From contig OY970399.1 in assembly GCA_963720545.1 (NCBI GenBank), forward strand, positions 3,520,001 to 3,584,000: a stretch of DNA of 64,000 nt, in the 5' to 3' direction. How positions within the stretch are numbered: the first letter of the stretch is position 1; each line of letters starts with the position of its first letter. This document shows positions 19,117-37,897 of this stretch, one piece after another. Made by a program: the position numbers and the translations under genes. The stretch comes from an uncultured Acidobacteriota bacterium (GTDB lineage Bacteria; Acidobacteriota; Vicinamibacteria; Fen-336). The notes below the pieces were generated by a model. It was not told the DNA's origin and did no database searches. It worked only from the letters and a program-made list of their open reading frames with translations.

Positions 19117-19232
19117 GTTTCACGCAAATCGCCTTGTGCGTCGAAGAGTGGAGCGTAAGTGAAAAGGGTGACGTTGGCCAGTGACCGCCCAATGTATCGA
19201 GCGTGAAAGGCGTGAGGAGCTAAGCTCCGCAC

Positions 19233-20117
19233 ATGCAGAAAACACTTCGGATTCTTCCGCTCGTAGCGTTCTGTGCTACCGCCACTGCGGCGGCGGCGCC
19301 TCCTGCCAAGGACAACGCTGCGCACAAAGCGCATGAGGAGTATGTCGCCGCCATCAATTCGAACAACCTCGACACGCTGCTCGGCATGCTCACCGAGGAC
19401 GTTGTGTATATGGCAGCGCATGAGGCGCCCATGGTGGGGAAGGCCGCGGTGAAGCCGTGGGTTGACGGCTATTTCAAGGCGTTCAAGACGCACTGGGAGA
19501 AGCCGGTGCAGGAGTTTGTCGTTATGGACAGCGAATGGGCGTTTGAGCGCTACTCGTACAAGTCGACGGACACGCCCGTCGGCGGTGGTGGCGCCGTGAG
19601 CGATACCGGATGGGGACTCGCGATCTACCATCACGACAAGGACGGCAAGTGGCGGGTGGCGCGGGATTCGTGGGGGCCGGATCACCCGGCGACAGCGGTT
19701 GCGGATGCGATGGGGGGAGCGATGGACGCCGATAAGGTCAAAGACTTCGCGACTCGCTACACCAGTGCGTGGTGCAGCCAGGATCCGGCGCGGGTTGCTT
19801 CCTTCTACTCGGAGAAAGGCTCGCTCAAGATCAACGCCGGCGAGCCTGCCGTCGGGCATGACGCGATCACGGCGTCGGCGCAGGGGTTCATGCGTGCCTT
19901 TCCCGACATGGTTGTTGCGATGGATTCCGTCGGCATCGAGAACGGTCAGATGATCTTTCGCTGGACGCTGACCGGTACCAACACGGGCCCGGGTGGCACG
20001 GGTAAGGCCGTGCGAATGAGCGGCTACGAGGAGTGGACTCTCGGCGCCGACGGCCTCATCGCGCAGTCTCTCGGGCACTACGACGAAGCCGACTACGCGC
20101 GCCAGCTGGGGCGCTGA
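19233..20117 (+). CDS. Secreted two-domain NTF2-like protein (DUF4440 plus SnoaL-like)
   Basis: Signal peptide. Domain 1 ends DGKWRVARD. Domain 2 is YTSAWCSQDPARVA...GYEEW...SLGHYD. Confidence 0.85.
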   Translation: MQKTLRILPLVAFCATATAAAAPPAKDNAAHKAHEEYVAAINSNNLDTLLGMLTEDVVYMAAHEAPMVGKAAVKPWVDGYFKAFKTHWEKPVQEFVVMDSEWAFERYSYKSTDTPVGGGGAVSDTGWGLAIYHHDKDGKWRVARDSWGPDHPATAVADAMGGAMDADKVKDFATRYTSAWCSQDPARVASFYSEKGSLKINAGEPAVGHDAITASAQGFMRAFPDMVVAMDSVGIENGQMIFRWTLTGTNTGPGGTGKAVRMSGYEEWTLGADGLIAQSLGHYDEADYARQLGR

Positions 20118-20922
20118 GTTCCGACGGCCGGGTGCCGTAGCGGCGGCGAAACGTCGTCGCGAAATGGCTGAGTGAGCCGAAGCCTACGGCGAAGCAGGTT
20201 TCGGTGACGCCGGCGCCGTCGCGGAGCCTGGTGCGGGCGTGAGCGAGCCTCACATCGCGCAGATAGCGGTGGGGCGGCTGGCCTTCGAGCTCGGCGAAGA
20301 CACGCGCGAAGTGGAAGATGCTCATTCCGGCGTCGCGAGCCAGCATGGAAAGTGACAGCCGCTCGGCGTAGCGCGCTGCAATCATCGCTTTCGCGCGCTC
20401 GACGCGGCCTGCGTACCACGACAGGCGGACGGCGCGGAACAGCGGTTGCTTCTTTCTGCTCGCTGAGAGCGACGCAAGCAGCGCGTCGGCGAGAGCTTCG
20501 AGGCGCCCTTCGTCTCCCGCAACGCACTCCAGGAGGCCGTGCTGCAGGAACGCCTGGCGATTGGTAAGCGGGCGAACAAGAGACGGGGTTGACGCGGGCG
20601 CCGTCATCGCCACGGAGCGCGCGCTCTCAATCGCCTCGTCCGAGTACCTCACGGAAAGACATGAGTCGCTCGGAAGGTCTTCGTCGTGCGCGCACGAGAA
20701 CTCGAGGCCCGGCGTCGTCACGAGCACCGAACCGGCGGTCATCGTATGCCACCTGCCGGTGGTGCGAACCCGAAACGAGCCAGCCTCGACCAGGTTGATG
20801 GCGTGTGTCCTGGCGTGCTCGCGCCTGGGGTCGCGATGCGCCAAACCGGGAACGTGATCGAAGCGCTCCAGCGCGACGGCATCCGTTTGCAGCAGGCGCG
20901 CAACACGGTTCATCGAAACCAT
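20056..20922 (-). CDS. AraC family transcriptional regulator
   Basis: LARDAGMSIFHFARVF...VGFGSLSHFATTFRRRYG. Confidence 0.92.
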   Translation of the reverse strand: MVSMNRVARLLQTDAVALERFDHVPGLAHRDPRREHARTHAINLVEAGSFRVRTTGRWHTMTAGSVLVTTPGLEFSCAHDEDLPSDSCLSVRYSDEAIESARSVAMTAPASTPSLVRPLTNRQAFLQHGLLECVAGDEGRLEALADALLASLSASRKKQPLFRAVRLSWYAGRVERAKAMIAARYAERLSLSMLARDAGMSIFHFARVFAELEGQPPHRYLRDVRLAHARTRLRDGAGVTETCFAVGFGSLSHFATTFRRRYGTRPSELSAPAGARSRLRRSARETAR

Positions 20923-21010
20923 GATGGCACGACTTTGGCGCCCTCGCGATTCGCAAGAAACCGCAAGTCGGGCGGGCGGCTCCAGCCTAGATTGTGAGCC
21001 GGAGGTGTTG

Positions 21011-21460
21011 ATGACGATTGTCCAGACTCTGGCCCTGGCGGTTGGCGTGGCCGTACTTCAGGCCGATGCGGCGGTGGACGCGAACGTGCTGATCGCGCGT
21101 GAAACGGCGTGGCGTTCGTACTTCGCCGGTGACGTGAAGACCCTGGGCGACCTGCTGCCGCCAGAGTTCATTGGCATCGGCATGAACGACGGACCGTTCG
21201 GCGATCGCGCCACGACCCTTGCCGACTCGCAGGCATTCCATGAGCGCGGCGGCCGGTTGGTGAGCCTCTCGTTTCCCGAGACGCGTCAGCAGCGCTACGG
21301 CGACACAATCTTCCTCTATGGACGCTTCGAGGCGGTGATCGAGTCGGGCGGCAAGCAGGCCACGATGCGCGGCCGCCTCACGGAAACGTTCGTGCGGCGC
21401 GACGGCAAGTGGTGGCACCCCGGCTGGCATCTCGACCTGGTCTCGACACCCGACAAGTAG
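21011..21460 (+). CDS. NTF2-like (DUF4440) secreted protein
   Basis: GGAGG RBS, signal peptide, TETFVRRDGKW. Confidence 0.85.
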   Translation: MTIVQTLALAVGVAVLQADAAVDANVLIARETAWRSYFAGDVKTLGDLLPPEFIGIGMNDGPFGDRATTLADSQAFHERGGRLVSLSFPETRQQRYGDTIFLYGRFEAVIESGGKQATMRGRLTETFVRRDGKWWHPGWHLDLVSTPDK

Positions 21461-21498
21461 CTCGTGGCGGCCTCGTTTTCGGCCTAGGATGCTGTTCG

Positions 21499-21867
21499 AT
21501 GGCGACTCAAGCGGACGTGCGTCGCATTGCTCTCGCACTGCCCGGCGCTGTTGAAAACACGGAGGGCCGGTTCGCCTTCGCCGTCGCCGACAAGAAAGGG
21601 AAGCAGAAGGGCTTTGCGTGGTCCTGGCTGGAACGCATCCACCCGAAGAAGGCGCGCGTGCCGAGCTCCAAGGTCATCGCCGTACGGGTGCGCGACCAGG
21701 CCGAGAAGGCGGCGCTCCTGGCCGGCGATCCCGACGTCTTCTTCACCGAACCTCATTACAACGGTTACCCGGCAGTGCTCGTGCGCCTCGCCGCGGTCAC
21801 GAAACCGCAGCTGAAGAAGATCCTCTACGAAGCCTGGCGATGCCAGGCGCCCCAGAACCTTAAGTAG
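21499..21867 (+). CDS. MmcQ/YjbR family protein
   Basis: VRRIALALPGA...FFTEPHYNGYPAVLVRL. Confidence 0.9.
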   Translation: MATQADVRRIALALPGAVENTEGRFAFAVADKKGKQKGFAWSWLERIHPKKARVPSSKVIAVRVRDQAEKAALLAGDPDVFFTEPHYNGYPAVLVRLAAVTKPQLKKILYEAWRCQAPQNLK

Positions 21868-21881
21868 ACTCGCGCACGACG

Positions 21882-23417
21882 ATGGCTCTGTTCCAAAGCA
21901 CACTGATCCTCCTTGTCATTGCGATAGCTCTGCTCCAGGTGTCGCGGCGGTTCGCGATTCCCTATCCCACCATCCTGGCCATGGCCGGCGTGGGGGTGGC
22001 CGCGCTGCCGGGAGCGCCGACCATCGGCATCGAGCCGCACCTGGCCTTGGCGCTCTTCATTGCGCCGGCGCTGCTCGATGCGGCGTACGACTTTCCGCGC
22101 TCGGCGTTGTGGCGGCATTGGATTCCGCTGGTGCTGCTCGCCGCGGTGGCGGTGGTGGTGACGACCGCTGCGGTGGCGTGGGCCAGCGTGACGTGGGCGG
22201 GCCTGCCGCTTTACGCGGGGATAGCACTCGGGGCGATCGTGTCGCCGCCGGATGCGGCGGCCGCTACGGCAATGCTCGGGCGGCTGGCCCTGCCGCGAGC
22301 CACTGTCACCGTGCTGAAAGGCGAGAGCCTACTCAACGACGCTGTCGCGCTCCTGATCTTCGGCGCGGCGGTTGGGGCGATGACCAGCGGGACATCGATC
22401 ACGGCGCGCCTGCCCCAGCTCGCGCTGGCGGCGCCGGGCGGAGTGCTCGTCGGCTACGCGCTCGGATGGGTCCAGGCGCGCGTCACGCCGCACCTCGCCG
22501 GTACCGTGGGTCTCGTGGTGATGACCTTCGTCTCCACCTACGGCACCTGGCTCATCGCCGAACAACTGCACGTCTCGCCGATCCTCGCGATCGTTGCGTA
22601 CGGGATGACGGTTGCGCGCCACGGCCCTCACTTCGTCGCGGCGCGCGACCGGATGCACATCTACGCGGTGTGGGGCTTTGCGGTGTTCCTGCTCAACGTC
22701 GTCGCGTTCCTGCTGCTGGGGCTGCAGGCGCGCACCATCCTCAACGGCTTCGCGGATGCGGAACTGTTCGCCGCCCTGCGCTTCGCGGGCGGCATCTTTG
22801 TGCTCGTGGTCGTCATCAGAATCGTGCTGGTCATGATCTACAACCGGGCGATCCAGCCGGTCTATCGCTGGCTCGGCCGCACGCCGCCAACCGTGGCGCA
22901 GGGAATTCTGGTCTCCTGGTGCGGGATGCGCGGGCTGGTCACCCTGGCAACCGCGCTCGCGCTGCCGGCGACCTTTCCAGGCCGCGATCTCATCGTGCTG
23001 AGCGCTGTCGCAGTAGTGCTGGGCACGCTGGTGCTGCAAGGACTGACTCTCGGCCCGCTGATTCGCGTGCTGCGCTTTCCACCCGATGATTCGCTGCAGC
23101 GTGAGGTGGCAACAGCGCGCCTGGCTCTCTTCGGCGCGGCCATCGACAAGCTCGCTGGCGACGAGAATCCGGACGCGGTGTCGCTTTGCAGGAAATACAC
23201 GACACGTCACGCGCTCACTGTCGATGGTCTCGACCCGAACGATCTCCAGCACCTGCGGCTGCTGCGCAAGACGCTTGCCGCGGAGCGTGAGCGCCTCTCC
23301 GAGCTGCGGCGCGACGGGCACATCGACGACGAGGTCTTCCACGAGCTCGAAGCCGAGCTGGACCGCGCCGAAATGGCGACAGCACCGCACGAGAAGTTCG
23401 AGCTCGTCGAAGGCTAG
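21882..23417 (+). CDS. CPA1 family Na+/H+ antiporter
   Basis: GAIVSPPDA, KGESLLNDA, WCGMRGLVTLA, about 12 TM. Confidence 0.93.
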   Translation: MALFQSTLILLVIAIALLQVSRRFAIPYPTILAMAGVGVAALPGAPTIGIEPHLALALFIAPALLDAAYDFPRSALWRHWIPLVLLAAVAVVVTTAAVAWASVTWAGLPLYAGIALGAIVSPPDAAAATAMLGRLALPRATVTVLKGESLLNDAVALLIFGAAVGAMTSGTSITARLPQLALAAPGGVLVGYALGWVQARVTPHLAGTVGLVVMTFVSTYGTWLIAEQLHVSPILAIVAYGMTVARHGPHFVAARDRMHIYAVWGFAVFLLNVVAFLLLGLQARTILNGFADAELFAALRFAGGIFVLVVVIRIVLVMIYNRAIQPVYRWLGRTPPTVAQGILVSWCGMRGLVTLATALALPATFPGRDLIVLSAVAVVLGTLVLQGLTLGPLIRVLRFPPDDSLQREVATARLALFGAAIDKLAGDENPDAVSLCRKYTTRHALTVDGLDPNDLQHLRLLRKTLAAERERLSELRRDGHIDDEVFHELEAELDRAEMATAPHEKFELVEG

Positions 23418-23420
23418 GCG

Positions 23421-24170
23421 ATGCGCGTCGCGGCGCTCTTCGACATTCATGCGAACCTGCCGGCGCTCGAGGCTGTGATCGCGCGGATGCGAGGCGTTGG
23501 CATCAACCTGATCGTGGTGGGCGGCGACGTGGTTCCCGGGCCCATGGTACGGGAGACGCTCGCGTTGCTGCGCAGCGCTGGTGCGCCTTGCGTGTTCATC
23601 CACGGCAACGGCGAGACCGAGATCCTTGCGGCTCGTGCGGGCCGCGAACTGACTCGCGTTCCCGCGAACTTTCGCGATGCGATCGAATGGAACGCGGCCG
23701 GGTTGTCGGAGGCGGAGACGTCGATGGTCGAGTCGTGGCCGCTCACGGCGCGCGTCGAGGTCCCAGGCCTGGGCACGGTGCTCTTCTGCCATGCAACGCC
23801 GCGCGGCGACAACGAACTGTTCACCAAGCTGACCCCGACCGAGAGGCTGCTGCCGATCTTTTCAGCGACCGGAGCGGATGTCGTCGTGTGCGGTCATACA
23901 CACATGCAGTTCGACCGGCAGGTGGGAAGCGTGCGCGTCGTCAACGCCGGCAGCGTCGGGATGCCCTTTGGCAGGACCGGCGCCGACTGGCTGCTGATTG
24001 GGCCCGCGATCGAGTTTCAACACACGGACTACGATCTGGCGGATGCCGCCGCACGGATTCGGGCGACCGCCTACCCACAGGCGGAGTTCGCCGCGAACGC
24101 GGTGCTCAACCCAAGGTCGGAGGAGGAGATGGCGGCGTTGTTCGAACGGGCGGCGCTGGGGGGTAGGTAA
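23421..24170 (+). CDS. Metallophosphoesterase (YfcE-like)
   Basis: DIHAN, GGDVV, HGNGE, CHAT, GHTH, NAGSVG. Confidence 0.92.
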   Translation: MRVAALFDIHANLPALEAVIARMRGVGINLIVVGGDVVPGPMVRETLALLRSAGAPCVFIHGNGETEILAARAGRELTRVPANFRDAIEWNAAGLSEAETSMVESWPLTARVEVPGLGTVLFCHATPRGDNELFTKLTPTERLLPIFSATGADVVVCGHTHMQFDRQVGSVRVVNAGSVGMPFGRTGADWLLIGPAIEFQHTDYDLADAAARIRATAYPQAEFAANAVLNPRSEEEMAALFERAALGGR

Positions 24171-24220
24171 CGGGAGATCCCTCGGGCCAGCGCAAGCGCA
24201 AGGAGCCCTCGGGAAAACGG
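24169..24220. repeat. Dispersed REP-like element, copy 2
   Basis: AACGGGAGATCCCTCGGGCCAG...CCCTCGGGAAAACGG, between convergent genes. Confidence 0.75.
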
Positions 24221-24237
24221 GAGCGATCGGGGAACGG

Positions 24238-25155
24238 CTACCGTAAGGCGGCTAGTTGCTTCCAGTTGATGAGGATGAAGCCCTGCTCGCGGAGGTAGTT
24301 GCGGAACGCGGGGCTGCTCACGAGGTTGAGGTCCCATTCGCGCCAGGCGGCGCCCCAGTCGGGATGGTCCGCGGTCGCGCCGCGCATCTCCTCGTCGTCA
24401 TAGCCAAGGTGGACGATCAGCTGGTAAACGCCCGGCGGCAGCGGCGTGAGGATGTCCCTGTAAGCGGCGAACCACTGGTCGCGCGTGACGCCGGGACCGA
24501 TGGAGACGACGCGGTCGACGAAGGCTTCGTCGCGCGCCGCGGTGGCCGGTGCGTTGCGCGAGCCACTGCGTTCCAGCAGTCGCGGCAGGTTCACGGCCTC
24601 GCCGACGCGGCGATACGTCTCGAACAGCGGCTCGGAGCGGAACAGCATCGCCATGTGCGAGTCGATGTGCGACAGGCGAATGCCCGCCGAGCGTGCCCGT
24701 TCCACCTGTGCCTTCAGCTCCACCTCGACTTCCGCCGGCACCGCGCGCGGCACGACCAGTTCCTCGTTCAGCGGCAGGTAGCCCTGGGCGTCCATGAGGC
24801 TCGGCACCTTGTCCACCGGGCTCACCGGCCGCCAGCGAAACGGCGTCCACTCGCTGTTGAGCGCCAGGTGGATGCCAAGGTCCGCGTCCGGATGAGCCGC
24901 GGCGAAGCTCACGACCTCGGGAAACCACGGGCACGGGACCAGGATACTGGCCGACGTGACCCAGCCGTTTTCGAGCGCTTTGAACGTGGCGCGGTTGACC
25001 GAGTGGGACATGCCGAGGTCGTCGGCATGAATGATCAGCAGGCGCGATTCGGCGGGGTAGCCGAGCCGCTCCTGCACGGTGCGTGTTTCGCTTGCGGTCG
25101 CGGTGGCCACCGCGAGTGCTGCTGCGAGCCAGGGCATCACTGCCATACGCCGCAT
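24238..25155 (-). CDS. YdjC/ChbG-like carbohydrate deacetylase, secreted
   Basis: IIHADDLG, GIHLAL, HIDSHM, IVHLG. Signal peptide. Confidence 0.9.
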   Translation of the reverse strand: MRRMAVMPWLAAALAVATATASETRTVQERLGYPAESRLLIIHADDLGMSHSVNRATFKALENGWVTSASILVPCPWFPEVVSFAAAHPDADLGIHLALNSEWTPFRWRPVSPVDKVPSLMDAQGYLPLNEELVVPRAVPAEVEVELKAQVERARSAGIRLSHIDSHMAMLFRSEPLFETYRRVGEAVNLPRLLERSGSRNAPATAARDEAFVDRVVSIGPGVTRDQWFAAYRDILTPLPPGVYQLIVHLGYDDEEMRGATADHPDWGAAWREWDLNLVSSPAFRNYLREQGFILINWKQLAALR

Positions 25156-25301: not shown

Positions 25302-26186
25302 CTACTGCAATTGAGTTCCGTCGGCTTCGGGGCGGTCGTCCCCTTGCAGCTCGTCGTGCGTGCCCGCCGGGCCCCGCTCTAGGCCGGTTTCGAGGGCGCC
25401 GATACGGCCCTGGCGGTCGAGAGTCATCGTGGTCGGCCACACGCGGATGCCGGCGCGACGGGCGATGCGCAGGTCGCTGTCCGGCACCGTGGTGAACCGC
25501 TCGCCGAGATGTCCGGCCACCACTTCTGACTCGCGGCCGCCAGCGCCGCCGAGCACCACGACGAGGTTGACGCCGCGCTCTTCCGCGGCGTCGTAGCGCG
25601 CGGCGAGATTGCGCAGGTGCGCCATGGTCGCATCGGTCACAGCGGGCACGAAAGTCACGACCGTGCCGTAGCTGCCGCGGCTCCACGGAAACGGCGGACA
25701 GGGATCCTGCAGCGCCGAGTAGTCGATGGGCCACAACAAGTCGCCGATGGGAAACAGCTTGTCGACGCCCCAGGCCGCGCCGATCACGTCGAGGTTCGGC
25801 GACGGGCTGGTGACAAGACGGCTGTCGAGCGCGTGCGTCAGCTGGCGCGCGTCCAGCTCGCCTTCGTGCGACCACGTCACGTCGCCGGCGGGGCCCACCA
25901 GGCGGGCGCTGCCGTCTTCGAGGCGAAATGCGCGCGACCAGCGGCCGCCGACGTCCTCGGCCACGACCGTCGCGAGGCCCATCTCCGCACCCACACGCTG
26001 CAGTGCGGTGACCGGTCCGTCACGCCGGTCGAGGCGCTGGCCTTCGGGGACGAGTGCCAGCAGCGCCAGGCCGGCATCGCGGCGGTGGCTCGAGGCGAGC
26101 GCGGCGCCGATCGCGGCCGCGGCCTCATGGCTCAGGGATTCGCCGGCGTGCACGATGAGCGTGTTGTGCGCCGCTAGCAGCGCGGT
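25302..26186 (-). CDS. Tandem thioredoxin/peroxiredoxin-like folds without CxxC; probably the frameshifted C-terminal part of 26125-27951
   Basis: Frame opens just after a TGA near 26190 as ...AAHNTLIVHAGE. PDSDLRIARRAGIRVWPTT...DRQGRI is a Trx-type cis-Pro region. Confidence 0.65.
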   Translation of the reverse strand, partial: TALLAAHNTLIVHAGESLSHEAAAAIGAALASSHRRDAGLALLALVPEGQRLDRRDGPVTALQRVGAEMGLATVVAEDVGGRWSRAFRLEDGSARLVGPAGDVTWSHEGELDARQLTHALDSRLVTSPSPNLDVIGAAWGVDKLFPIGDLLWPIDYSALQDPCPPFPWSRGSYGTVVTFVPAVTDATMAHLRNLAARYDAAEERGVNLVVVLGGAGGRESEVVAGHLGERFTTVPDSDLRIARRAGIRVWPTTMTLDRQGRIGALETGLERGPAGTHDELQGDDRPEADGTQLQ

Positions 26187-27951
26187 TCGTCACGGCGAGG
26201 TCCACGCGCGCCAGCTGCGGGAACGGAACGTCCTGCGACAGCTCCGGAACGTCGGTGAAGTCGTGGCCGAACAGCGGGCCGGGATCGACTTGGAGCCCGG
26301 CGTAGATGTTGAACCCGAAGTGATTGCACTCGGTCTTGCTGGTGACGCGCTCGAGGTCGCCGGTGACAGCGTTCACCTGTGCCCCCTGGATCCACAAGCA
26401 CACACGACCCGAGACGTCGACTCCCGGCAGCGGCTCGGTGCCCTCGAACGCGATGTCGATGCCCCAGCGGCCCTTGCCGGCCCGCGGCCGGCGCAGCACG
26501 AAGCGGTCGGCCCAGGTTTTCGCGCCGGTGGCCTGCGAGCCATAGGTGGTCCACGACCAGGAAAACTTGTCGATGCGGCCGCCCGGGATCCACGCCTTCA
26601 CGGCGGTCAGCGCGTCGCCTTCGCCGGTCTTCTCGAACATCACCACGGGCCGCTGGCGGCGCGACACCGAGATGCGCCCGCGCAGGATCATGCCGTCGCC
26701 GAGGAACTCCGCGCCTTCAACGCGCGCGCCGGCGCCGGCGTCGAGCGTGCGCAGCTGGGTCACGAGCTCCGCCTTGCGGCCGAGGATGGCATCGACATCC
26801 GGTTGCGCGGCGGCGCAGGCGTTCTCGATCATCGGCTTCACGATGCCGTCGATGGTGCTCTTCACCGTGCCCTCGACGATGCCGCCGAACGGCCCACCCA
26901 CGTGGGCGTTGACCTTGCGCGAGCCGACGCCCAGCCACAACCGCTCCGAGCCGCTGTCGAAGTTGACTGTGATGTCCTGGTCGATGTCGAAGGTGGCGTT
27001 GGGAAGGATCGAGTCGGTGTTGGCGCCGCCGCTGACCTTGATCTTGATCACGGCGAAGCCGCCGTAGGGATGCCACTCGACGACCGGCGGGTTGGTCCAC
27101 ACGCGGTAAACGGTGTCGATGTCGGGCGCGGGCCACGGCGTGCCGACGTGCACCTTGATCGTCGGGTGGAAGTCGCGGATGGGTGCCAGCGCAGGCTCGG
27201 CCAGCGCCATGACCGTGGCGGTGCTCACCGCGATGCCGAAGTCGGCGCCTTGCAGGAACAGCCAGTTGACGCTCGCGATGTTGCCGGCCGGATCGCCATT
27301 GACCGGCACCGGCGCCACGACTGCAGTCTCGCCGTTCGCGTCGAGGCTGCGCAGCGAACCGCGCCGGAAGCGCTTCGACACCGGGTGCGGCGTCGCCTGG
27401 AACTCGGTCAGCAGCGCCACCGCGACCTGCCGGCTGATGCGCTCCTCGACCTGCGCATGGTCTTCGACGGCGCCGCCCGGTGTGTACATGCCGGTGAAAT
27501 TGATCTCGTCCTCAGCGGTTCCGGCGAAATGCACGGTCTCCGGCACCACGCGCACCCACACGTGGTCCGCGGCCTTCTTCGACCAGCCCAGGCACTTCGG
27601 ATCGATGTCGGCGATGTGGTACTGCGCGCGCACTGTGCCGTTCATGTACTGGGGCAGCGGTTTGGTGCCGGCATCCGGCAGGTAGCGGGCGCGCACCGGC
27701 ACTTCGATCCAGAAGCGGTCGGTGGAGCCGCCGATGAGCGAGACGCGCGGCGCGCCCACCTGCGCCTTGACCGTGCCGAGGACGCCGTCGACCTTGTGGA
27801 CCTGGCCGAGGCGCAGCTGCACGCTGTGCGGAAAGCTCGGCGTGTCGGGATTGGTGAACGCGTTCTGGTGGAGGCTCGCCATCAGGCGGTTGATGGTCTT
27901 GCCGCTCACCTGCAAGACAGCATCGAAGTCACCGGTCAACGGGTTCGGCAT
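26125..27951 (-). CDS. Large hypothetical protein (MPNPLTGDFDAVLQVS...), probably continuous with 25302-26186
   Basis: 608-aa ORF with strong GC3 bias. The tail after ...DLAVTNR looks out of frame. Confidence 0.75.
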   Translation of the reverse strand: MPNPLTGDFDAVLQVSGKTINRLMASLHQNAFTNPDTPSFPHSVQLRLGQVHKVDGVLGTVKAQVGAPRVSLIGGSTDRFWIEVPVRARYLPDAGTKPLPQYMNGTVRAQYHIADIDPKCLGWSKKAADHVWVRVVPETVHFAGTAEDEINFTGMYTPGGAVEDHAQVEERISRQVAVALLTEFQATPHPVSKRFRRGSLRSLDANGETAVVAPVPVNGDPAGNIASVNWLFLQGADFGIAVSTATVMALAEPALAPIRDFHPTIKVHVGTPWPAPDIDTVYRVWTNPPVVEWHPYGGFAVIKIKVSGGANTDSILPNATFDIDQDITVNFDSGSERLWLGVGSRKVNAHVGGPFGGIVEGTVKSTIDGIVKPMIENACAAAQPDVDAILGRKAELVTQLRTLDAGAGARVEGAEFLGDGMILRGRISVSRRQRPVVMFEKTGEGDALTAVKAWIPGGRIDKFSWSWTTYGSQATGAKTWADRFVLRRPRAGKGRWGIDIAFEGTEPLPGVDVSGRVCLWIQGAQVNAVTGDLERVTSKTECNHFGFNIYAGLQVDPGPLFGHDFTDVPELSQDVPFPQLARVDLAVTNRAASGAQHAHRARRRIPEP

Positions 27952-27985
27952 GATTCAGGTTCGCTTTCCGACCGCGCGCTCGCGG

Positions 27986-28987
27986 TCACTTGTTGATGGC
28001 GAAGTGGTTCTCGAGTTCTTTCGCGGTCAGCGCCTTGCTGTGCAGCACCACCTCCTGGATGACGCTCAGGATCGGCTGGTGGACGGTCTCCGGCTGCGCC
28101 GGGTTGAGCTGGCCGTTCTCGATGCCGATGTAGAGCGGCAAGCCCACCGGCGGCGCGTACGCGGCGACCGCTGCCTCGGCCACCTGGCTGCCGTTGATGA
28201 ACAGGCGCACGCGGTGCTGCGTGCCCACCTTTTCCACGGTCATCGCGATGTGAATGGCAGCGAGCATCGCGACCGGCGCGCTGGTGAGCGGCACCGCGCC
28301 GGCTGGAGCAAGGCCTACGGCCCACGCGTTCTGGATGCTGGCCAGAAGCTGGAACCCGTGTCCGCTCGGTGGCGGCGCCGGCTCGGCGTAGAGGCCGGCC
28401 GCGCTCCACAGCGTGTGTTCGTAGTTCGCGACCTTGGTCCACGCGGGCGTGATCCACGCTTCGAGCGTGAAATCGGTGGGATGCAGGCCGGCTTTCCACG
28501 GGATGCGCACGAACCCGCCTCCGAAATGGCGTGCCTTCACGGAAGGGTCGGTGACGATGAGGCTCGCCTGGTTGACGACGAACGTGCCGGCGGCTCCCTC
28601 GGTGGCGTCGCCCTGGTTATCGGGCAGCAGCCCGGGCGAGACGTATTCGCCGTCCTGGAAGCCTTTCTCGTCGTGCGCCACGTTGGAGGTCGGCGCATCG
28701 ACGAGGCGCCAGTAGCCGACCACGGCATTGGGGTCCGGCACGATCTCGGGGTTGGGTACGGTCCCGGGATTGTTCGGCACGCCCATGATGTAGTCGCGGT
28801 AGCGCGGCGGCTTCGGCTTTTCCGTGGGCGGCTTGGAAGGGTCGACTTTGGAAGGCGGTGTCTCGGCGCTCGGCTCGGCCTCGGAGGGGGTCGCACCGAC
28901 GCCGAAGCTGCTGCAGCCGACGAAGCGGAACAGCACGACGATGGGCAGCGCCAGCAGGGGCAGCAGCAGGTACAACCAGTCAGCCAT
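27986..28987 (-). CDS. LamG/concanavalin-A-like jelly-roll domain putative lipoprotein
   Basis: VVGYWRL, DFTLEAWI, HIAMT...RLFINGS, IQEVVLHSKALT. N-terminus MADWLYLLLPLLALPIVVLFRFVGC followed by a Pro-rich linker. Confidence 0.85.
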   Translation of the reverse strand: MADWLYLLLPLLALPIVVLFRFVGCSSFGVGATPSEAEPSAETPPSKVDPSKPPTEKPKPPRYRDYIMGVPNNPGTVPNPEIVPDPNAVVGYWRLVDAPTSNVAHDEKGFQDGEYVSPGLLPDNQGDATEGAAGTFVVNQASLIVTDPSVKARHFGGGFVRIPWKAGLHPTDFTLEAWITPAWTKVANYEHTLWSAAGLYAEPAPPPSGHGFQLLASIQNAWAVGLAPAGAVPLTSAPVAMLAAIHIAMTVEKVGTQHRVRLFINGSQVAEAAVAAYAPPVGLPLYIGIENGQLNPAQPETVHQPILSVIQEVVLHSKALTAKELENHFAINK

Positions 28988-29725
28988 CTAGTTCCTCCAC
29001 GCAGTGATGAGGACGGCAAGGGACAGGGAGACGAGCCCCAGGGATAACGCGCGCTGCAGGCGCAAGCCGAAGGCGCGGTCTTGGGTTTCGCGCGCTGCTT
29101 CGAGGAGGGCGCGAACCGCGCCGTAGCCGCACACCGTGGCGAGAAAGACGACGCCAGCGGCTGGGCTAGTGCGCTGAAGCGCAAAGACCGCGGCCAGCAG
29201 CAAGGCCGCGCTGGCAGCCTCGAGCAGCTGGTTCGGCACGCGGCGCGCCCACACGCCCAGGTGGTTCGGCAGGTACATGCCGAACCGGCTGTTCGTCGGC
29301 CTGCCCGCGCAGCAGCCGTTCAGGAAGCAGCCCGCGCGCGTGATCGCCATGCCGGCCAGCATCGTGAAGGAAGCGCTGTCCCAGAAGCGCCAGAACGGAA
29401 CTGCGAGCGCCGCGAGCAGCGGGACCGACACCGGCACGGCAAGCAGCAGGCCGCCATAGAGCGCACCGCCGCCTTCGTTGCGCGCGTACATCGCCGCGCG
29501 GTTGCTGCGGTATGCGGACCAGTGACTGAGGACGAACAGCAGCCGCGAGCCGAGAAGCGCCGGGATCAGCAGCAGCAGCGTCGCGAGCGAGACCTGGCCG
29601 ACAACGAGGTGCATACGCGCCGCCACCGACTGCTGCACGAACATGCCGGCGACGATACCGGTGGCGAGCATCGCCGGATAGCTGTGGATCCGCAGCCCAT
29701 TCCATTGCAGCAGCACGCGGCGCAT
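28988..29725 (-). CDS. lgt: Prolipoprotein diacylglyceryl transferase (accessory Lgt paralogue)
   Basis: LLGSRLLFV, GGALYGGL, RAGCFLNGCCAG, PNQLLE, YGAVRALLEAAR. Confidence 0.85.
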   Translation of the reverse strand: MRRVLLQWNGLRIHSYPAMLATGIVAGMFVQQSVAARMHLVVGQVSLATLLLLIPALLGSRLLFVLSHWSAYRSNRAAMYARNEGGGALYGGLLLAVPVSVPLLAALAVPFWRFWDSASFTMLAGMAITRAGCFLNGCCAGRPTNSRFGMYLPNHLGVWARRVPNQLLEAASAALLLAAVFALQRTSPAAGVVFLATVCGYGAVRALLEAARETQDRAFGLRLQRALSLGLVSLSLAVLITAWRN

Positions 29726-29729
29726 TGGG

Positions 29730-30179
29730 TCAGCCCCGCAGTCCTGAAGCAGCCGCAACCAGCGCCCCGGCGACGATCGCGGCATCGGCGAGATTCCACG
29801 CCGGCCAGAAGCGCAGGTCGATGAAGTCGACGACGCCGCCGCGCGCCAGCCGGTCGGCGAGATTGCTCGCGGCGCCGCCGAGCGCCGCGCCCAGTGCAAC
29901 GCGGGCGGTGAGCGTGGCGAAGAAGGGCGTTGCGCTCACCAGCAGCATGAGGGCCGCCGCCTCGAGGGCGAGCAGCACGACGAGGGCGCGGCCGCCTCGG
30001 GCGGCACGCCCGCCGGCGCCGCGAGGATTGAGGCCCACGCGCAGCAGCGCACGGCGTGCCGAAGCCGCACTGCTCGCCGGCAGGTGCGACAGCGCGAAAT
30101 GCTTCGTGGCCTGGTCGAGGATCAGCACCAGCGCTGCTGAAAAAAGCAGCCACGCAGGCGACGTTGAAGTGACAATCAC
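29730..30179 (-). CDS. lspA: Signal peptidase II (accessory LspA paralogue)
   Basis: LDQATKH, GGAASNLADR, GVVDFI, WNLADAAI. Both catalytic Asp residues are present. Confidence 0.88.
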   Translation of the reverse strand: MIVTSTSPAWLLFSAALVLILDQATKHFALSHLPASSAASARRALLRVGLNPRGAGGRAARGGRALVVLLALEAAALMLLVSATPFFATLTARVALGAALGGAASNLADRLARGGVVDFIDLRFWPAWNLADAAIVAGALVAAASGLRG

Positions 30180-30298
30180 GATGTCCCGAACGGCGCTTTG
30201 GGAAGAGGTGGGCGCAGGCTACCGGCGCCTAGACGCCGATTGCAAGCAAAAGCGACGCAGCTCCGACTATGCTCTGCGGACACTATTGGGGGCCTTCA

Positions 30299-31587
30299 AT
30301 GATCAAGACGCACACGGCACGCATCGTCCTGGGGATGGCCTTGCTCATCCCGGCATGTCGGCTGCCGGCGCCCCACAGCCAGGCGCAAAGCCACGGGCGC
30401 GCGACCTCGGCGTTCCATTTGACGGGACACCGGGGTCAGCCAATGCGATCACCGATGTGCAGGGTGTCGAGGTCGGCTACACGACGCTCGTTTCGGGCGA
30501 AGGCAAGCGCGAGACCGGCAAGGGGCCGGTGCGCACCGGCGTGACCGCGATACTGCCGCGCGGCCGCGAGTCGCTGGCACCGGTGTTCGCCGCGTTCACC
30601 ATCGGTAACGGCAACGGCGACATGACCGGCACGCACTGGATCGAGGAGAACGGCGTGCTCGAGACGCCGATCCTCATCACCAACACCCTGAGCGTCGGGG
30701 TGGTGCGCGACGCCGCGGTGTCGTGGCTCGTGAAGCGCGATGCGCCGGCGACCTTCTGGTATCCGGTGGTCGCGGAAACATCCGACGGCTGGTTGAACGA
30801 CCAGAAGGGCCAGCACGTGAAGGCCGAGCATGCGCTTGCGGCGCTCGAAGCGGCGCGCGGCGGAGCCATCGCTGAGGGCAATGTTGGTGGCGGCACCGGC
30901 ATGTTGTGCAACGGATTCAAGGGCGGCACCGGCACGGCTTCGCGGCGGCTCGCAGCCGAGGCCGGCGGCTACACCATCGGCGCCCTGGTGCAGTGCAACT
31001 ACGGCCTGCGCTCCGACCTGCGGATCGCCGGCATTCCGGTTGGCCGCGAGATCAAGGGCTACCAGCCGTGCGTCGCGCAGAAGATCGAACCGCCAGTGCG
31101 CCGCGGCAACGGCGATCCGTTTCCGGTCTGCGGGCCCGACGGCGCCTCGGTTTCGACGCTGGCCGAAGGCGAGGGTACGGAAGTGGAGCAGGGATCGATC
31201 ATCGTCGTGATCGCGACCGACGCGCCGCTTTCACCCGACCAGCTGAAGCGCGTCGTGAGGCGGGTGAGCCTTGGCCTGGGACGCCTGGGATCGACCCACG
31301 GCAACGGCTCCGGCGACATCTTCATCGCCTTCTCCACGGCGAACTCCGGCGCCGATGCCGGCAACAGCGAGACCGGCAAGGGTCCGGCGACGATCACACG
31401 ACTGCGTGCGGCCGGCATGGATCCGCTGTTTCTCGCCACCGTCGAAGCCACCGAGGAGGCGGTTGTCAACGCGATGGTTGCCGCCGAGACCATGACGGGC
31501 TCCGACTACATTCGGGTCCACGCGATACCGCACGAGCCGTTGCGCGCCGTGCTGCGGGCCCACGGGCGGTTGACCGAAGCTAAGTAA
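30299..31587 (+). CDS. DmpA/P1 (S58) family aminopeptidase; signal peptide is out of frame (1-nt frameshift near 30350)
   Basis: [62 protein letters not shown] (ATG 30299) is in another frame. Confidence 0.9.
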
Positions 31588-34129
31588 GGCTGCCGATCCT
31601 CAGCAACTGCAGCACCGGCTCGCCGGCCGCACGCGACGAGTGCAGGTCGACCTCGAATTCGGCGAGCCAGTCGTTGAGGTCCTGCGTGTCGACCAGCATC
31701 TGCTGGACGCGCCAAGAACCGCTTGCCGATTCCGTGTCCACGCTGGTGTGCTTCAGGTTGCGCGCCTCGGGGTCGAGGCGCAGCGTGCCGTGTTCCTGCC
31801 GGTGCGCGTCGCGCAGCGCCTTCAGGACGTCGACACTCCACTCGACCCCGGCCGCGTCGATCTTCGCGTCGAGCACCTCCAGGGCCGCCTCGTCCTGGCC
31901 GATCGACCAGTTCTTGAGGAACGCGAAGATGCGGGCGCGGATGGCGGCGGTGAACGCCTTGGCGTTGGCAGTGACGTCGATCGGACCGGCATCGAGCGGG
32001 GCAGGCTGCGCCGGTGCCGAAGCACTCCCCTCGACGCCGGTGCGCATGCGGTCCCACTCCTCCAGCAGGCTGGAGTCGACGGCGCGGATCATGTCGCGCA
32101 GGTAGAGCTCCATCTCGAGGAGCATCCCGGTCTTGATGCCGTCCGGCACCGTCTGCGCCAGCACCTTGTAGACGCTGTTGAGGTGGCGCAGCAACAACCC
32201 TTCGGCGCGCTCCAGGTCGTACTCCTGGACGTAGTCGGGAAAGGTGCGGAAGCCTTCGAACATTTCGCGCGCGATCGACTTGGGGCGAATGTTCTCCTCG
32301 CCAACCCACGGGTGCGCATCGGCGAAGGCGTTGAACGTCATGTAGACGAACTCGCGCAGCGGCTTGGGGTACTCGAGCTTCTCGAGCTTCTCCATGCGCT
32401 GGTCGTAGTCGAGGCCCTCGGCCTTCATCGCCGCGATGGCTTCGCCTTTCACCTTGTCGAGCTGCTTGCGCAGGATGAGGTCCGGGTCTTCCAGGATGCT
32501 TTCGACGAGCGTCAGCACGTCGAGCGCGTAGGTCTCCGACTCCGGCTCGAGGTGGTGGATCGTCTCGAGCAGGTACAAGGACAGCGTCTGGTTCATCGAG
32601 AAGTCGTCCTGCAGCTCGACGTTGACGCGCACTTTCGAACCGCTGCGCTCGGCGGCAGGCACGATCTCGATGATGCGGCGCGCCACCAGCGAGCGGAACA
32701 GCTGCCAGGCGCGGCGGAAGTGCGCCGGCTTGTTGCGCTCCGGGTCGTGGCTGTCGTGGATGAGGTGCTGCATCGCGCGGCAGCCATCGCCCTGGCGCGA
32801 CAGCACGTTGAGCAGCATGCCGTGCGTCACCTGGAAGCGCGAGGCGAGCTTCTCCGGCTGCGCACCGATCAGGCGCTTGAAGGTCTGCAGGTCCCAGTGC
32901 GCGTAGTTGCGCTCAGGCGGCTTGCGGCGCACGAACTTCTTGCCGTCCTTCGCCTTCTCCTCGAGGCGCAGGTTCTCGATGACGTGCTCGGGCGCCTGCG
33001 CCACCACGTAGCCCTGGTCGTCGAAGCCCTTGCGCCCGGCGCGGCCGGCGATCTGGTGAAAGTCGCGCGCGCTCAACACCGCGGTCTTCAGCCCGTCGAA
33101 CTTGCAGAGGCGCGTGAACAACACCGTGCGGATCGGCACGTTGATGCCGACGCCGAGCGTGTCGGTGCCGCAGATGACCTTCAGCAACCCCTTCTGCGCG
33201 AGCTGTTCGACCAGCACGCGGTACTTGGGCAGCAGGCCCGCGTGATGCACGGCGATACCCTGTTTCAACCACTTGCGAATCACCGGGCCGTACGGGCTGC
33301 TGAAGCGGAACCCCTCGATCGCCTCCGCCACCGCGTTCTTCTCATCGCGGGTTGCGAGGTTGAGGCTCGTGAAGTCCTGCGCGCTGTCGGCCGCCTCCTT
33401 CTGCGTGAAGTGCACGACGTAGACCGGCGCCTTCTTCTCCGACACCAGCTTGTCGAGCGTCTGCGACAGCGCGATCTCCGAGTACGCGTAGTCGAGCGGC
33501 ACGGGACGCAATTCCGACTTCACCACGGCCGTCGGCCAGCCGTTGAGGCGGGTCAGCCCTTCCGCGAAAAAAGCAACATCGCCGAGCGTCGCCGACATCA
33601 GCAGGAAGCGCGTGTTGGGCAGCGCCAGCAGCGGCAGTTGCCAGGCGACGCCGCGGTCGCGATCGGCGTACCAATGGAACTCGTCCATCACCACGTCGTC
33701 CACCGTCGAGTCGGCCCCTTCGCGCAGCGCCATGTTGGCGAGCACCTCGGCAGTGCAGCACAGGATCGGCGCATCGCGATTGACCGTGGCATCGCCAGTG
33801 GAGAGCCCGACGTTGTCGGCGCCGAACTCGCGGCAAAGAGCCATCCACTTCTCGTTGACCAGCGCCTTGATGGGGCAGGTGTAGACAGAGCGGCGACCCT
33901 CGGACATCGACGCGAAGTGCAATGCCGACGCGACCAGCGACTTGCCGGAGCCCGTGGGCGTGTTGAGAATGACGTTGCGCCCCTCGAACAACTCGAGGAC
34001 CGCTTCCTCCTGGGCCGCGTACAGGCTGAGGCCGCGCGACTCGACATATTCGAGAAACCGGCCGAGCAGCTCGCTGCTGTCGGCGTCCTGGGGCGGGAGC
34101 AGGGCGAAAAGCGGCGCCGCCTTGTTCAA
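31580..34129 (-). CDS. Ski2-like DEAD/DEAH helicase with DUF3516-type C-terminus
   Basis: [43 protein letters not shown]. Start uncertain (TTG 34129). Confidence 0.92.
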
Positions 34130-34239
34130 GGCTGCCCAACATGAGGATGTTGCTCGGGATCTATATTCAAGGCTGCCTTGATTATGGACGGGGTTGCGCG
34201 CGAGCGGGGAAGGCCGTGGATGCGTAGAGTCTGGCGCTG

Positions 34240-35166
34240 ATGGCGTCTTCGACCCTGCGTGTGGCGGCCGTGCAGGCCGCCGCGGTGCCTCTCGACCTTG
34301 CGGCGTCCTTCGCCAAGGCGAAGGCACTCGTGGCGGCTGCGGCGGCGCAAGGCGCGAACCTGGTCGTGTTTCCGGAGACCTGGCTGCCGGGTTATCCCGC
34401 GTGGCTCGACTGTTGCACCGACGTCGCTCTGTGGGACCACGAGCCGATGAAGCAGGTGTTCGCGCGCCTGCGCGAGAACAGCGTGCTGGTGCCGGGGCCC
34501 GTCACCGAGGCGCTCGGTGCGTTGGCGCTCGAGCATGACGTGGTGCTCAACATCAGCGTGCACGAGCGCGTGGCGGAAGGACCCGGCCGCGGCACCCTCT
34601 ACAACACGATGCTCACGTTCGGCGCCGACGGCGTCCTGCTGCACCGCCATCGCAAGATCATGCCGACGTTCAGCGAGAAGCTCATCTGGGGAGCGGGCGA
34701 TGGCCGCAGCCTGCATGCGGTCGACACGGGCCGCGCCCGCGTCGGCGGGCTCATTTGCTGGGAGCACTGGATGCCGCTCGCGCGGCACGTGTTGCACGCG
34801 TCGGGCGAGGACGTGCACGTTGCCGCCTGGCCGCAGGTGAAGGAGATGAACCTGGTGGCCAGCCGCAGCTACGCTTTCGAGGGCCGCTGCTTCGTCATCG
34901 CCTGTGGCGCGATCATGAAGGCGTCGGACCTGCCCGCCGAACTGACGCCGATGCCTTCGCTCATCGGCAGGCCCGATGCGCTGGTGCTGAACGGCGGCAC
35001 CGCCATCATCGGCCCCGACGGCGCCATCCTTGCCGGGCCGGTGTATGGCGAGGAAACGATCGTCGTTGCCGACCTCGACCTGGGTCGCATCGACAAGGAA
35101 AGCCTGACGCTCGACACGGCCGGGCACTACCATCGGCCCGACATCTTCGACGTGCGGGTGAAGTGA
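34240..35166 (+). CDS. Nitrilase / carbon-nitrogen hydrolase
   Basis: Catalytic triad FPE, HRKIMP, ICWEH. GHYHRPD. Confidence 0.93.
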
Positions 35167-36695
35167 CGGCGCAAAAGGCCGCGCCGCTCTGGACGCTCGT
35201 CGCCACGATCCTGGGTTCGAGCCTGGCGTTCGTCGATGGCACCGTCGTGACCGTCGCACTGCCGGCCCTGCAGCGCGACTTCGATGCCGCAGCCGCCGAC
35301 GTGCAGTGGGTGGTCGAGGCATACGCGCTCTTGTTCTCGGCGCTGCTGCTCGTCGGCGGTTCGCTCGGCGACCGCTTCGGGCGGCGCCGCGTCTACGCGC
35401 TCGGCATCGTCACGTTCACCGGCGCGTCGATGCTGTGCGGCCTGGCTCCGAGCGTCACGCTGCTGATCGCGGCGCGCGCGCTGCAGGGCATCGGCGCCGC
35501 GCTGCTCGTGCCCGGCAGCCTGGCCCTGATCGCGGCGTCCTTCACCACCGGTCATGAGCGCGGCAAGGCCATCGGCACGTGGTCGGCGTTCAGCGCCATC
35601 GCCACGGCACTCGGGCCGGTGCTCGGCGGCTGGCTGGTGGACACCGCGGGCTGGCGCTACGCCTTTTTTCTCAACCTGCCGGTGGCGCTCGTGACGCTGG
35701 CCATCCTGTTCTGGCGGGTCGAGGAGAGCCGCGACCGGTCGGCCGCGCGGCACTTCGACTGGCTGGGCGCGTCCCTGGCCGCGACCGGCCTTGGCGGCAT
35801 CGTGTACGGGCTCATCGAAGCCGCGCGTCTCGGCTGGGGGCACAGGGCCATCGTTGGGGCGATCGGGCTTGGTTTTGCCGGTCTCGCGGCATTCTTCATC
35901 GTCGAATCGCGCAGCAAGGCGCCCATGCTTCCGCTCGGGCTCTTCAAGTCGCAGCGCTTCGCGGGCGCCAACCTGCTCACCGCCGGTCTCTACGGCGCCT
36001 TGACCGCCACGATGTTCCTCCTGCCGCTGAACCTCATCCAGGTGCAGCGCTACTCGGCGACCGCGGCCGGCGCCTCGCTGCTGCCGCTGATCCTCATCAT
36101 CTTCCTGCTGTCGCGATGGACAGGCGGCCTTGCCGAAAGGGTCGGCCCGCGGCTGCCGCTCGTCATCGGGCCCGCGGTGGCCGCCGCCGGCATGGCGCTC
36201 ATGGCGCTGCCCGGCGTGGGCGGCAGCTACTGGGCGACTTTCTTCCCGCCGATGGTGGTCCTCGGGCTGGGGATGGCGATCACGGTTCCGGCACTCACCA
36301 CAACCGTGATGGATGCCGTTGACGTAGCGCACGCGGGCACGGCCTCGGGCATCAACAATGCCGTCACGCGAGCCGCGGGACTGCTCACGATCGCCCTCAT
36401 GGGCGTGCCGATGCTGGCCGTGTTCAGCGCCCAGCTGGTTCGCCGGCTGCCGGCGCACGGGGTTCCCGCGCCGGTCGCCGCCGAGGTGCTGCAGCAGCGC
36501 ATCATGCTCGCCGAAATCCAGCCGCCGCCCTCGGCAACCCCTGCGCAAGCGCTCGCCGTGCGCCAGGCGGTGGCGGAGTCTTTCGTCGCCGGGTTTCGCG
36601 TCATCCTGCTGGCCTCGGCCGCGATGGCCCTGCTCGGTGCAGTCCTTGCGGCTTTCATGGTCGGCGGCGAGAGTGTCGATCCGGTGCCCGGCTGA
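35163..36695 (+). CDS. MFS transporter, DHA2 (14-TM) type
   Basis: GSLGDRFGRRR, RALQGIGAALLVP. GTGA overlap with the nitrilase stop. Confidence 0.92.
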   Translation: MTAQKAAPLWTLVATILGSSLAFVDGTVVTVALPALQRDFDAAAADVQWVVEAYALLFSALLLVGGSLGDRFGRRRVYALGIVTFTGASMLCGLAPSVTLLIAARALQGIGAALLVPGSLALIAASFTTGHERGKAIGTWSAFSAIATALGPVLGGWLVDTAGWRYAFFLNLPVALVTLAILFWRVEESRDRSAARHFDWLGASLAATGLGGIVYGLIEAARLGWGHRAIVGAIGLGFAGLAAFFIVESRSKAPMLPLGLFKSQRFAGANLLTAGLYGALTATMFLLPLNLIQVQRYSATAAGASLLPLILIIFLLSRWTGGLAERVGPRLPLVIGPAVAAAGMALMALPGVGGSYWATFFPPMVVLGLGMAITVPALTTTVMDAVDVAHAGTASGINNAVTRAAGLLTIALMGVPMLAVFSAQLVRRLPAHGVPAPVAAEVLQQRIMLAEIQPPPSATPAQALAVRQAVAESFVAGFRVILLASAAMALLGAVLAAFMVGGESVDPVPG

Positions 36696-36788
36696 TCGAC
36701 GTGCTGTTGGAAGCGGCTATCATGGCCGCAATCGAGGAGACAGCTACCTGCGCGAACCGGGGCTGCGCGCGTTGCTGCCGCTGCGCAG

Positions 36789-37892: not shown

Positions 37893-37897
37893 GGCGC

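Follow-up and report, generated by a model that had tools for sequence, protein, structure and literature searches.

A paralogous Lgt/LspA pair with reversed charge bias, probably dedicated to non-canonical lipoprotein clients, in an uncultured Acidobacteriota bacterium

Organization of the cassette

In this study, we analysed by computation a 64,000-nucleotide stretch of the genome of an uncultured Acidobacteriota bacterium (GenBank assembly GCA_963720545.1, contig OY970399.1, positions 3,520,001 to 3,584,000; hereafter, the window). Its minus strand carries a cassette that encodes paralogues of the diacylglyceryl transferase Lgt and of signal peptidase II (LspA), a putative prolipoprotein (the client) and a giant partner protein (Table 1). 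What is new here is that both enzymes have a reversed Lys/Arg (K/R) bias with their catalytic residues kept, and we regard it as almost certain, judging from their sequences, that the two form a dedicated paralogous pathway. Neither the cassette nor an inverted Lgt/LspA was found described in our literature search, outside which lay most subscription papers, the lipocone source data and TipA figure EV2; the original prediction, made from the letters of the window, likewise knew of no such system.

That prediction had read the locus as tightly packed genes on one strand, with gaps of 4, 0 and 34 nt (lspA, lgt, client and giant gene, in that order), for an LspA with intact catalytic aspartates, an Lgt of the RxGCFLNGCC type, a LamG-domain protein and an unknown protein of about 880 aa. 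The coordinates agree with this spacing, and three of the four identities are borne out by family matches: LspA to PF01252, with equivalents of D124 and D143 in place; Lgt, of the GC-x-x-x-GCC type, to PF01790; and the client, whose N-terminus is as quoted (MADWLYLLLPLLALPIVVLFRFVGC), to PF13385. The length given for the fourth product holds by comparison with homologues, but the window as assembled contains two open reading frames (ORFs) in its place, one of 608 aa (27951-26125) and another, in a second frame, that stops at 25302. Base 26174 is absent from both of the sequencing runs whose contigs span the site (X1 and X7, two of the four runs; these represent two studies with one contig each, at low depths of 3.6 and 2.1). 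Because the base is missing from these contigs and the homologues are continuous, the break probably arose in assembly, and the true gene would then be some 882 codons long.

Table 1. Features of the lgt-lspA cassette in the window (limits of the folds in the giant protein are approximate and transferred from homologue P0003)
Feature	Position	Strand	Description
lspA (cassette)	29730..30179	-	Signal peptidase II paralogue, 149 aa, GTG start; PF01252 E 1e-21
lgt (cassette)	28988..29725	-	Diacylglyceryl transferase paralogue, GC-x-x-x-GCC type, 245 aa; PF01790 E 6e-34
Client signal	28913..28987	-	25 aa: acidic N-tail, ~17 uncharged residues, F-R-F-V-G|C, Cys25
Client prolipoprotein (putative)	27986..28987	-	333 aa: signal, Pro-rich linker, LamG/ConA-like beta-sandwich; PF13385 E 6e-9
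Giant partner gene	25302..27951	-	~882 codons, split in assembly; without signal peptide
Giant protein, predicted double TULIP	~27951-26660	-	
Giant protein, predicted beta-sandwich	~26620-26290	-	
Giant protein, two predicted thioredoxin-like folds	~26180-25370	-	Without CxxC
Extra base	26174		Breaks giant gene into frames of 608 aa and ~290 aa

Paralogy of the enzymes

PF01790 and PF01252 have just two matches each in the genome, and the second lgt/lspA pair sits in an ileS-lspA-lgt-rluD context (names taken from translations), which settles the question, raised with the original prediction, of whether a separate housekeeping locus exists. At least two PF01790 matches were found in 35/35 cassette genomes and at least two PF01252 matches in 34/35, some of these matches being fragments. 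In quick IQ-TREE trees with a midpoint root only (63 cassette Lgt and 57 cassette LspA rows, set against 31 housekeeping rows), the cassette forms of Lgt and LspA are each confined to their own side of one branch, with SH-like approximate likelihood ratio test (SH-aLRT) values of 99 and 98, respectively. Hosts are mixed on the cassette side (Acidobacteriota, Actinomycetota, Pseudomonadota, Gemmatimonadota, Verrucomicrobiota and Thermodesulfobacteriota), and the housekeeping Lgt of the window genome clusters with acidobacterial housekeeping Lgts. Both window enzymes score under the TIGR equivalog cut-offs; the cassette Lgt reaches 117.9 bits against PF01790 (curated cut-off, 24.9) and 73.8 bits against the TIGR00544 equivalog, below its cut-off of 118.9. 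A PDB sequence search with the two enzymes returned nothing beyond the known Lgt and LspA structures. No cassette-type Lgt was found in viral contigs or plasmids; the three viral-collection matches (L221-L223) are GCC-type lgt genes at 28-30% identity, and the two that were read look normally oriented and are probably host-derived.

Charge bias and catalytic residues

Helix limits were set by hand on the housekeeping proteins of this genome, which were aligned for this purpose with the solved structures of Lgt from E. coli and LspA from P. aeruginosa, and with guidance from published topology (PMC4728403 and PMC9360617); bias was taken as K+R in the normally cytoplasmic segments minus K+R in the normally periplasmic ones. 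For Lgt, the housekeeping mean is +5.5 (-1 to +12, n = 31) and the cassette mean -11.1 (-16 to -7; 57 of the 63 scored, the six with incomplete helices left out), with no overlap. All eight loops and segments shift in the direction required by inversion: K/R is gained in those that are normally periplasmic (N-arm, 0.9 to 3.0; arm-2, 1.5 to 4.0; head, 2.8 to 5.0; L6, 1.7 to 2.7) and lost from those that are normally cytoplasmic (L1, 3.3 to 1.4; L3, 2.7 to 0.6; L5, 3.0 to 0.95; C-tail, 3.4 to 0.4). In Lgt of E. coli, the periplasmic face is negatively charged and the cytoplasmic face positively (PMC4728403). For LspA, the bias falls from +1.4 (-3 to +5, n = 31) to -7.4 (-11 to -4; 57/57), with K/R lost from the normally cytoplasmic N-tail (1.8 to 0.1), L2 (1.8 to 0.3) and C-tail (2.6 to 0.2); four of its five segments shift, and the loop with the first catalytic Asp is unchanged (p 0.24). 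In the window itself, the K/R of the cassette LspA is concentrated on loops that are periplasmic in the normal enzyme, and the biases are -9 for LspA (housekeeping, 0) and -9 for Lgt (housekeeping, +7). Pairs from the same genome differ in the same direction for Lgt in 27/27 genomes and for LspA in 29/29; GC-driven Arg content is therefore controlled for.

A set of Lgts collected blind to their neighbours (103 scored of the best 150 profile-search matches) is bimodal, with 90 negative and 13 positive biases; the 13 all score at most 170 bits and group with housekeeping Lgt, a split which composition could help to produce. Three normally oriented Lgts (P0361, P0363 and P0381, one of them named Chloroflexota) have a cassette-like head motif, LPxxxGxWxxRY, and possibly represent a near-ancestral state that preceded the flip. 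Two candidate N-terminal fusions that might have fixed the topology, P0322 (TULIP/thioredoxin in frame with a cassette Lgt) and P0300, were rejected, as their Arg/Gly-rich junctions suggest frameshifts, and P0314 was not used because its tail is an unrelated ABC fragment.

The key residues of E. coli Lgt are Y26, H103 (described as the catalytic base), R143, E202, Y235, R239 and R246 (PMC4728403). The window Lgt has equivalents of all of these except H103. Among the 63 cassette Lgts, Y26 is kept in 56, R143 in 59 (Lys in the other 4), E202 in 58 (Asp in 5), Y235 in 59, and R239 and R246 in all 63; three Cys are also invariant (63/63). The His of HPxQ is missing from the cassette enzyme. A divergent subgroup of cassette LspAs carries N112H and D115E. 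The catalytic aspartates themselves, D124 and D143 (PMC9360617), have equivalents in 57/57 cassette LspAs each.

The client, its signal and natural fusions

The original prediction had called FVGC lipobox-like and had remarked on the missing basic n-region; both points extend well beyond the window. The motif F-x-F-[VI]-G-C occurs within the first 60 residues of 108/115 LamG homologues, far above chance, and in this genome the window client is the sole strong match to the signal profile. Only 1 of the 103 complete signals among these homologues has K/R in its n-region, whereas 81 have D/E there; the uncharged run averages 17.5 residues (n = 103), and K/R is commoner after the helix than before it in 100/103. 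The clients found at cassette loci behave alike (n-region K/R in 1/71). A canonical lipoprotein signal is defined by its positively charged n-region (PMC9360617), and the ordinary lipoprotein candidates of this genome, picked by a crude filter, have K/R there in 14/14 cases. Set against the lipobox pattern [LVI][ASTVI][GAS]C, positions -2 and -1 and the Cys conform, and the Cys is invariant in client alignments; at position -3, the sets that had been selected by motif or profile show Phe, and a number of actinobacterial clients show Thr. The Arg which the original prediction noted just before the box is present at position -4 in 35 of the 71 locus clients and is thus not universal, Gly or Ala occupying the position in 29.

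Clients exchange the mature domain (LamG, FN3, Ig or unknown) while keeping the signal. The AlphaFold2 (AF2) model of the window client (predicted local distance difference test score [pLDDT], 90.6) matches AbnA domain 4 and HCN-type LamG equally by VIA (Z 20.1; root mean square deviation [rmsd] 2.5-2.6; ~195 aligned). The modelled fold is thus shared by an arabinanase sugar-binding domain and the HCN-type LamG, and reveals no function.

When the cassette Lgt profile was run against 1.84 billion representative sequences, 18 of the 20 long proteins read were Lgt-linker-signal-GC-client fusions, to which a further search added 3/3, for a total of 21; because of these fusions, we conclude that cassette Lgt and client signal belong together. 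In 18 residues, the linkers contain on average 0.56 K/R and 1.56 D/E, and their net charge is zero or below in 17/18. Such a linker joins helix 7 of Lgt to the signal and, were Lgt oriented normally, would face the cytoplasm; its poverty in K/R is what would be expected of an outside loop.

The giant partner protein

The giant protein, which the original prediction left as one of unknown kind, can now be assigned a predicted architecture of a double TULIP followed by a beta-sandwich and thioredoxin folds. Its homologue search gave 169 matches, and among the 120 listed most are continuous proteins of 850-900 aa. In the AF2 model of homologue P0003 (pLDDT, 78.5; pTM, 0.66), residues 1-430 match BPI, CETP, P47 and OrfX3, with Foldseek E values of 1e-11 to 1e-9 (7e-11 to BPI and 2e-10 to P47) and VIA scores of Z 12.9 to P47 (rmsd 4.7, 357 aligned, residues 1-428) and Z 12.2 to an OrfX3 complex. 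The C-terminus matches a ResA-type thioredoxin fold (Z 12.5 to ResA), in which the CxxC of the TlpA/ResA active site is replaced by SAAS or SxxC. The beta-sandwich and the first thioredoxin-like fold were read from secondary structure, and structure searches have barely probed them. A search of the ESM Atlas returned only leads below 0.9 (a PF06597 cluster, 0.86). None of the 115 homologues examined has a hydrophobic N-terminus.

Distribution of the module

Searches baited with the giant protein yielded 56 loci from genomes and 58 from metagenomes. Smaragdicoccus niigatensis (L056) and Mycolicibacterium xanthum (L024) are among the cultured organisms with such a locus. The 58 genome loci counted here are 55 of the first set (fragment L058 left out), two added later and the window (L202, a duplicate of L011, was not counted), and 41 of these have at least 4 kb on each side. 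A profile search recognises lgt, lspA and the client signal together in 27/41; six further loci have both enzymes together with a client recognised by eye, so that all three accompany the giant-protein gene in 33/41. Of the remainder, one combines lspA with clients, three keep just the clients and have lgt at another site of the same genome (L055 lies on the same contig as L019), three have an HExxH peptidase in place of lgt, lspA and client, and one has none of these. Gene content is conserved across phyla, but gene order varies, convergent layouts included, with one to four clients per locus. Of 401 genomes sampled evenly from the phylum, 4 contain the TULIP gene, and these same 4 have the cassette-type Lgt (at 263-342 bits, where the next-best match scores 147).

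No flanking gene beyond the core is conserved across the cassette loci, and no toxin gene is among the conserved neighbours. The best explanation is that the module is self-contained and has moved horizontally; since its GC content and third-position GC content (GC3) equal those of the neighbouring genes, a recent arrival in this genome is not indicated. The flanks in the window (17569-25155 and 30269-37937) hold unrelated housekeeping-type genes that are not kept around other cassettes: a Na+/H+ antiporter, a metallophosphoesterase, YdjC and a DEAD-box DUF3516 helicase by Pfam, and a DmpA-like peptidase and a nitrilase as read by eye. None of nine proteins scanned matched an anti-phage defence model in PADLOC (2023 model library). 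Elsewhere, the TULIP gene is present twice in L059 and in L044, along with several clients, L044 being strongly frameshifted. In genome G394, the TULIP gene is separate from lgt, lspA and two LamG clients, which surround a 163-aa coiled-coil-like ORF without known family (L219:8634-9125, minus strand).

A derived actinobacterial TULIP clade has a second context, in which the TULIP gene is followed by one for a signal-less HExxH peptidase that shows weak matches to Pfam M91 (E 2e-4) and CFI-box-CTERM, and by a beta-rich gene of ~170 aa (L026:4360-6475, L035:12634-14662, L036, L037, L042, L104, L109 and L113-L115). This clade is nested among the lipoprotein-type TULIPs in a tree that FastTree built from 31 rows; L038 was assumed to be peptidase-type for the labelling, and a start-motif filter had removed several loci.

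Discussion

From the reversed charge bias, we think it likely that the cassette Lgt and LspA are inverted in the membrane and carry out normal chemistry. The original prediction had missed this orientation, which is the likely reason for having a private enzyme pair, as well as the TULIP fold. As the charges suggest, Lgt would lie N-in/C-out and LspA N-out/C-out, the opposite of the housekeeping enzymes, so that both active sites would be turned toward the cytoplasm. The client signal, which we read as an N-out anchor, has an acidic, K/R-free N-tail and a full-length hydrophobic helix, and would insert N-out/C-in; this would place the lipobox Cys at the cytoplasmic leaflet, beyond the reach of housekeeping Lgt and LspA. 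There, as the conserved residues and the fusions suggest, the cassette Lgt would add diacylglycerol to the Cys and LspA would cut before it, to yield a diacyl lipoprotein on the inner face (Lnt was not found in the module). The next step is the weakest and, even if the earlier ones are granted, might equally well fail or hold: the signal-less double-TULIP protein would take up the acyl chains and solubilise the lectin-like client, as a cytoplasmic counterpart of LolA, and the client would then be moved to another membrane or released without Sec. Alternatively, client and TULIP protein may remain in the cytoplasm as a membrane-bound scaffold or sensor. Taken together, we consider it probable that a mirror-image Lgt/LspA pathway lipidates its clients and releases them at the cytoplasmic leaflet, with the TULIP protein as the candidate carrier. 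We are a little short of evenly divided on the wider proposal that this is a second mirror-image pathway, in which Lgt, LspA and signal were inverted together and a cytoplasmic double TULIP extracts the products much as eukaryotic cytosolic chaperones do with lipidated proteins. Carriage of the lipidated client by the TULIP protein, proposed by analogy with LolA, is somewhat less likely than not.

Several observations weigh against inversion with intact chemistry. The topology is derived from charge counts with hand-set helix limits, and the sequences compared are related, so that the p-values of the charge comparison overstate. The C-terminal flank of the client signal is net acidic in 64/103, and the Arg at -4 is absent in 36/71; the orientation signal of the client would thus lie mainly in the missing basic n-region. 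The client folds LamG, FN3 and Ig are those typically met in exported proteins. In the giant protein, C120 and C752 are both present in 135 and both absent in 13 of 148 homologues, and C520 and C544 in 146 and 2, the exceptions falling in one or two clades; this suggests disulfides or a metal site, and disulfide-like pairs would call for an oxidising compartment. Moreover, the peptidase-type TULIP clade exists, and no cassette-type Lgt was found in the five peptidase-type genomes searched, all drafts, so the TULIP protein does not depend on lipidated clients everywhere. As to the chemistry, the H103 position of the cassette Lgt is Tyr in 52 and Phe in 8 of 63, and NxGxAF, a motif of the periplasmic loop of LspA, is lost, in the window enzyme as in others: its Gly is found in 31/31 and its Phe in 30/31 housekeeping enzymes, whereas the cassette LspAs keep the Gly in 4/57 and the Phe is outside their five commonest residues. 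The change H103Y inactivates E. coli Lgt (PMC4728403). Nonetheless, the position is not His in 20/31 housekeeping Lgts, and for this reason its loss does not diagnose inactivity; Tyr is found there in 8/31, including the housekeeping Lgt of this genome (G000:C1:804882-806133, in L001), which is of the GCxxAGCC type.

Part of this evidence also fits a dedicated pathway of normal orientation, with periplasmic enzymes, an odd signal, basic outer loops that bind acidic lipids or partners, and a TULIP protein exported without a signal as a periplasmic or surface carrier. Such a pathway would account for the exported-type client folds, the paired cysteines of the TULIP protein and the acidic C-flank, and it would share the dedication seen in the fusions and co-occurrence. 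The cysteine pairs and lectin-type folds suggest that the product may eventually leave the cell, which fits maturation inside followed by Sec-independent release, yet also keeps the normal orientation in play. We nevertheless hold the latter to be unlikely, because it does not explain why both enzymes have lost K/R from each of their normally cytoplasmic segments, nor does it account for the K/R-poor fusion linkers and the signal-less TULIP protein. It would also be conceivable that the enzymes are inverted and chemically different or partly dead, with Lgt moving another lipid or only binding it, LspA not cutting, or both, and the client staying anchored. The Tyr or Phe at H103, the missing HPxQ His, the lost NxGxAF, the N112H and D115E of the divergent subgroup and the three invariant Cys of Lgt all lean this way; we find it quite improbable given that both LspA aspartates, R239 and R246 of Lgt and the lipobox Cys of the client do not vary, and that housekeeping GCC-type Lgts have the same Tyr and Cys. 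Finally, extra lgt and lspA copies occur in some bacteria, and the cassette might be an ordinary redundant pair that came to stand beside a lipoprotein gene by chance. Against the separate tree branches with their mixed hosts, the tight linkage at most loci, the fusions and the reversed charge, this is scarcely credible; branches, gene content and fusions also uphold the dedicated pair with a non-canonical client that the original prediction proposed.

If inversion is correct, it would overturn the rule that bacteria make their lipoproteins at the outer side of the cytoplasmic membrane; reviews place the Lgt and LspA active sites, and the mature lipoprotein domain, on the periplasmic side (PMC4728403 and PMC9360617 among them). 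It would also mean that the enzymes of a whole pathway can be inverted in concert with their substrate, that an inner-face lipid anchor can be encoded by a tag of ~25 residues and two small enzymes (or one fusion), and that a bacterial TULIP is tied to a defined cargo. Should inversion fail, the dedicated paralogous Lgt/LspA pair is the finding that remains.

The nearest known system is the canonical Lgt-LspA(-Lnt)-Lol pathway, with which the cassette shares enzyme families, catalytic residues and lipobox Cys (PMC4728403, PMC8689077 and PMC9360617) as well as the adjacency of lspA and lgt, seen also in the housekeeping locus of this genome. The cassette differs in the reversed charge of both enzymes, in a signal with no basic n-region, Phe at -3 and a longer helix, in having no Lnt or Lol genes among its conserved neighbours, in its accessory, patchy occurrence and in its TULIP partner. 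The NCBIfam NF058595 "lipo-invert" tail has a name that suggests an unusually placed lipoprotein signal, and was rejected as the cassette signal: its sole match over cut-off in 35 cassette genomes is a C-terminal tail of helix, basic patch and lipobox on an unrelated protein, encoded on a contig other than that of the cassette, and among the cassette proteins scanned one client reaches 16.8 bits (cut-off, 37). An NF058595 example unrelated to the cassette (L201:9658-11877, minus strand) is metallopeptidase-like and ends in a helix, a basic patch, a LAIQAG-C lipobox and a short tail. The Skillet-1 lipocone operons resemble the cassette in pairing a predicted dedicated lipidation enzyme with clients that have an unusual lipobox-like signal and concanavalin/Ig-type domains; unlike the cassette, they use an unrelated enzyme and Ser (GS) in place of Cys, and the available part of the source mentions no LspA paralogue, TULIP partner or inversion (PMC12419801).

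For the inversion itself, the paralogues of the SMR transporters offer a precedent, being homologues placed in opposite orientations by opposite K/R bias; there, however, the two orientations make up one antiparallel dimer, whereas here two unrelated enzymes and their substrate would have flipped together (bioRxiv 10.1101/133298). The double-TULIP fold predicted for residues 1-430 of the giant protein is that of P47/OrfX2/OrfX3, BPI/LBP/CETP and Bdellovibrio TipA, from which the giant protein differs by its low identity to known double TULIPs (8-11%) and by its fusion to a beta-sandwich and two thioredoxin folds without CxxC. TipA, for which lipid holding has been demonstrated, also has a beta-sandwich partner; unlike the cassette TULIP protein, it has a signal peptide (bioRxiv 10.1101/2025.09.09.675085).

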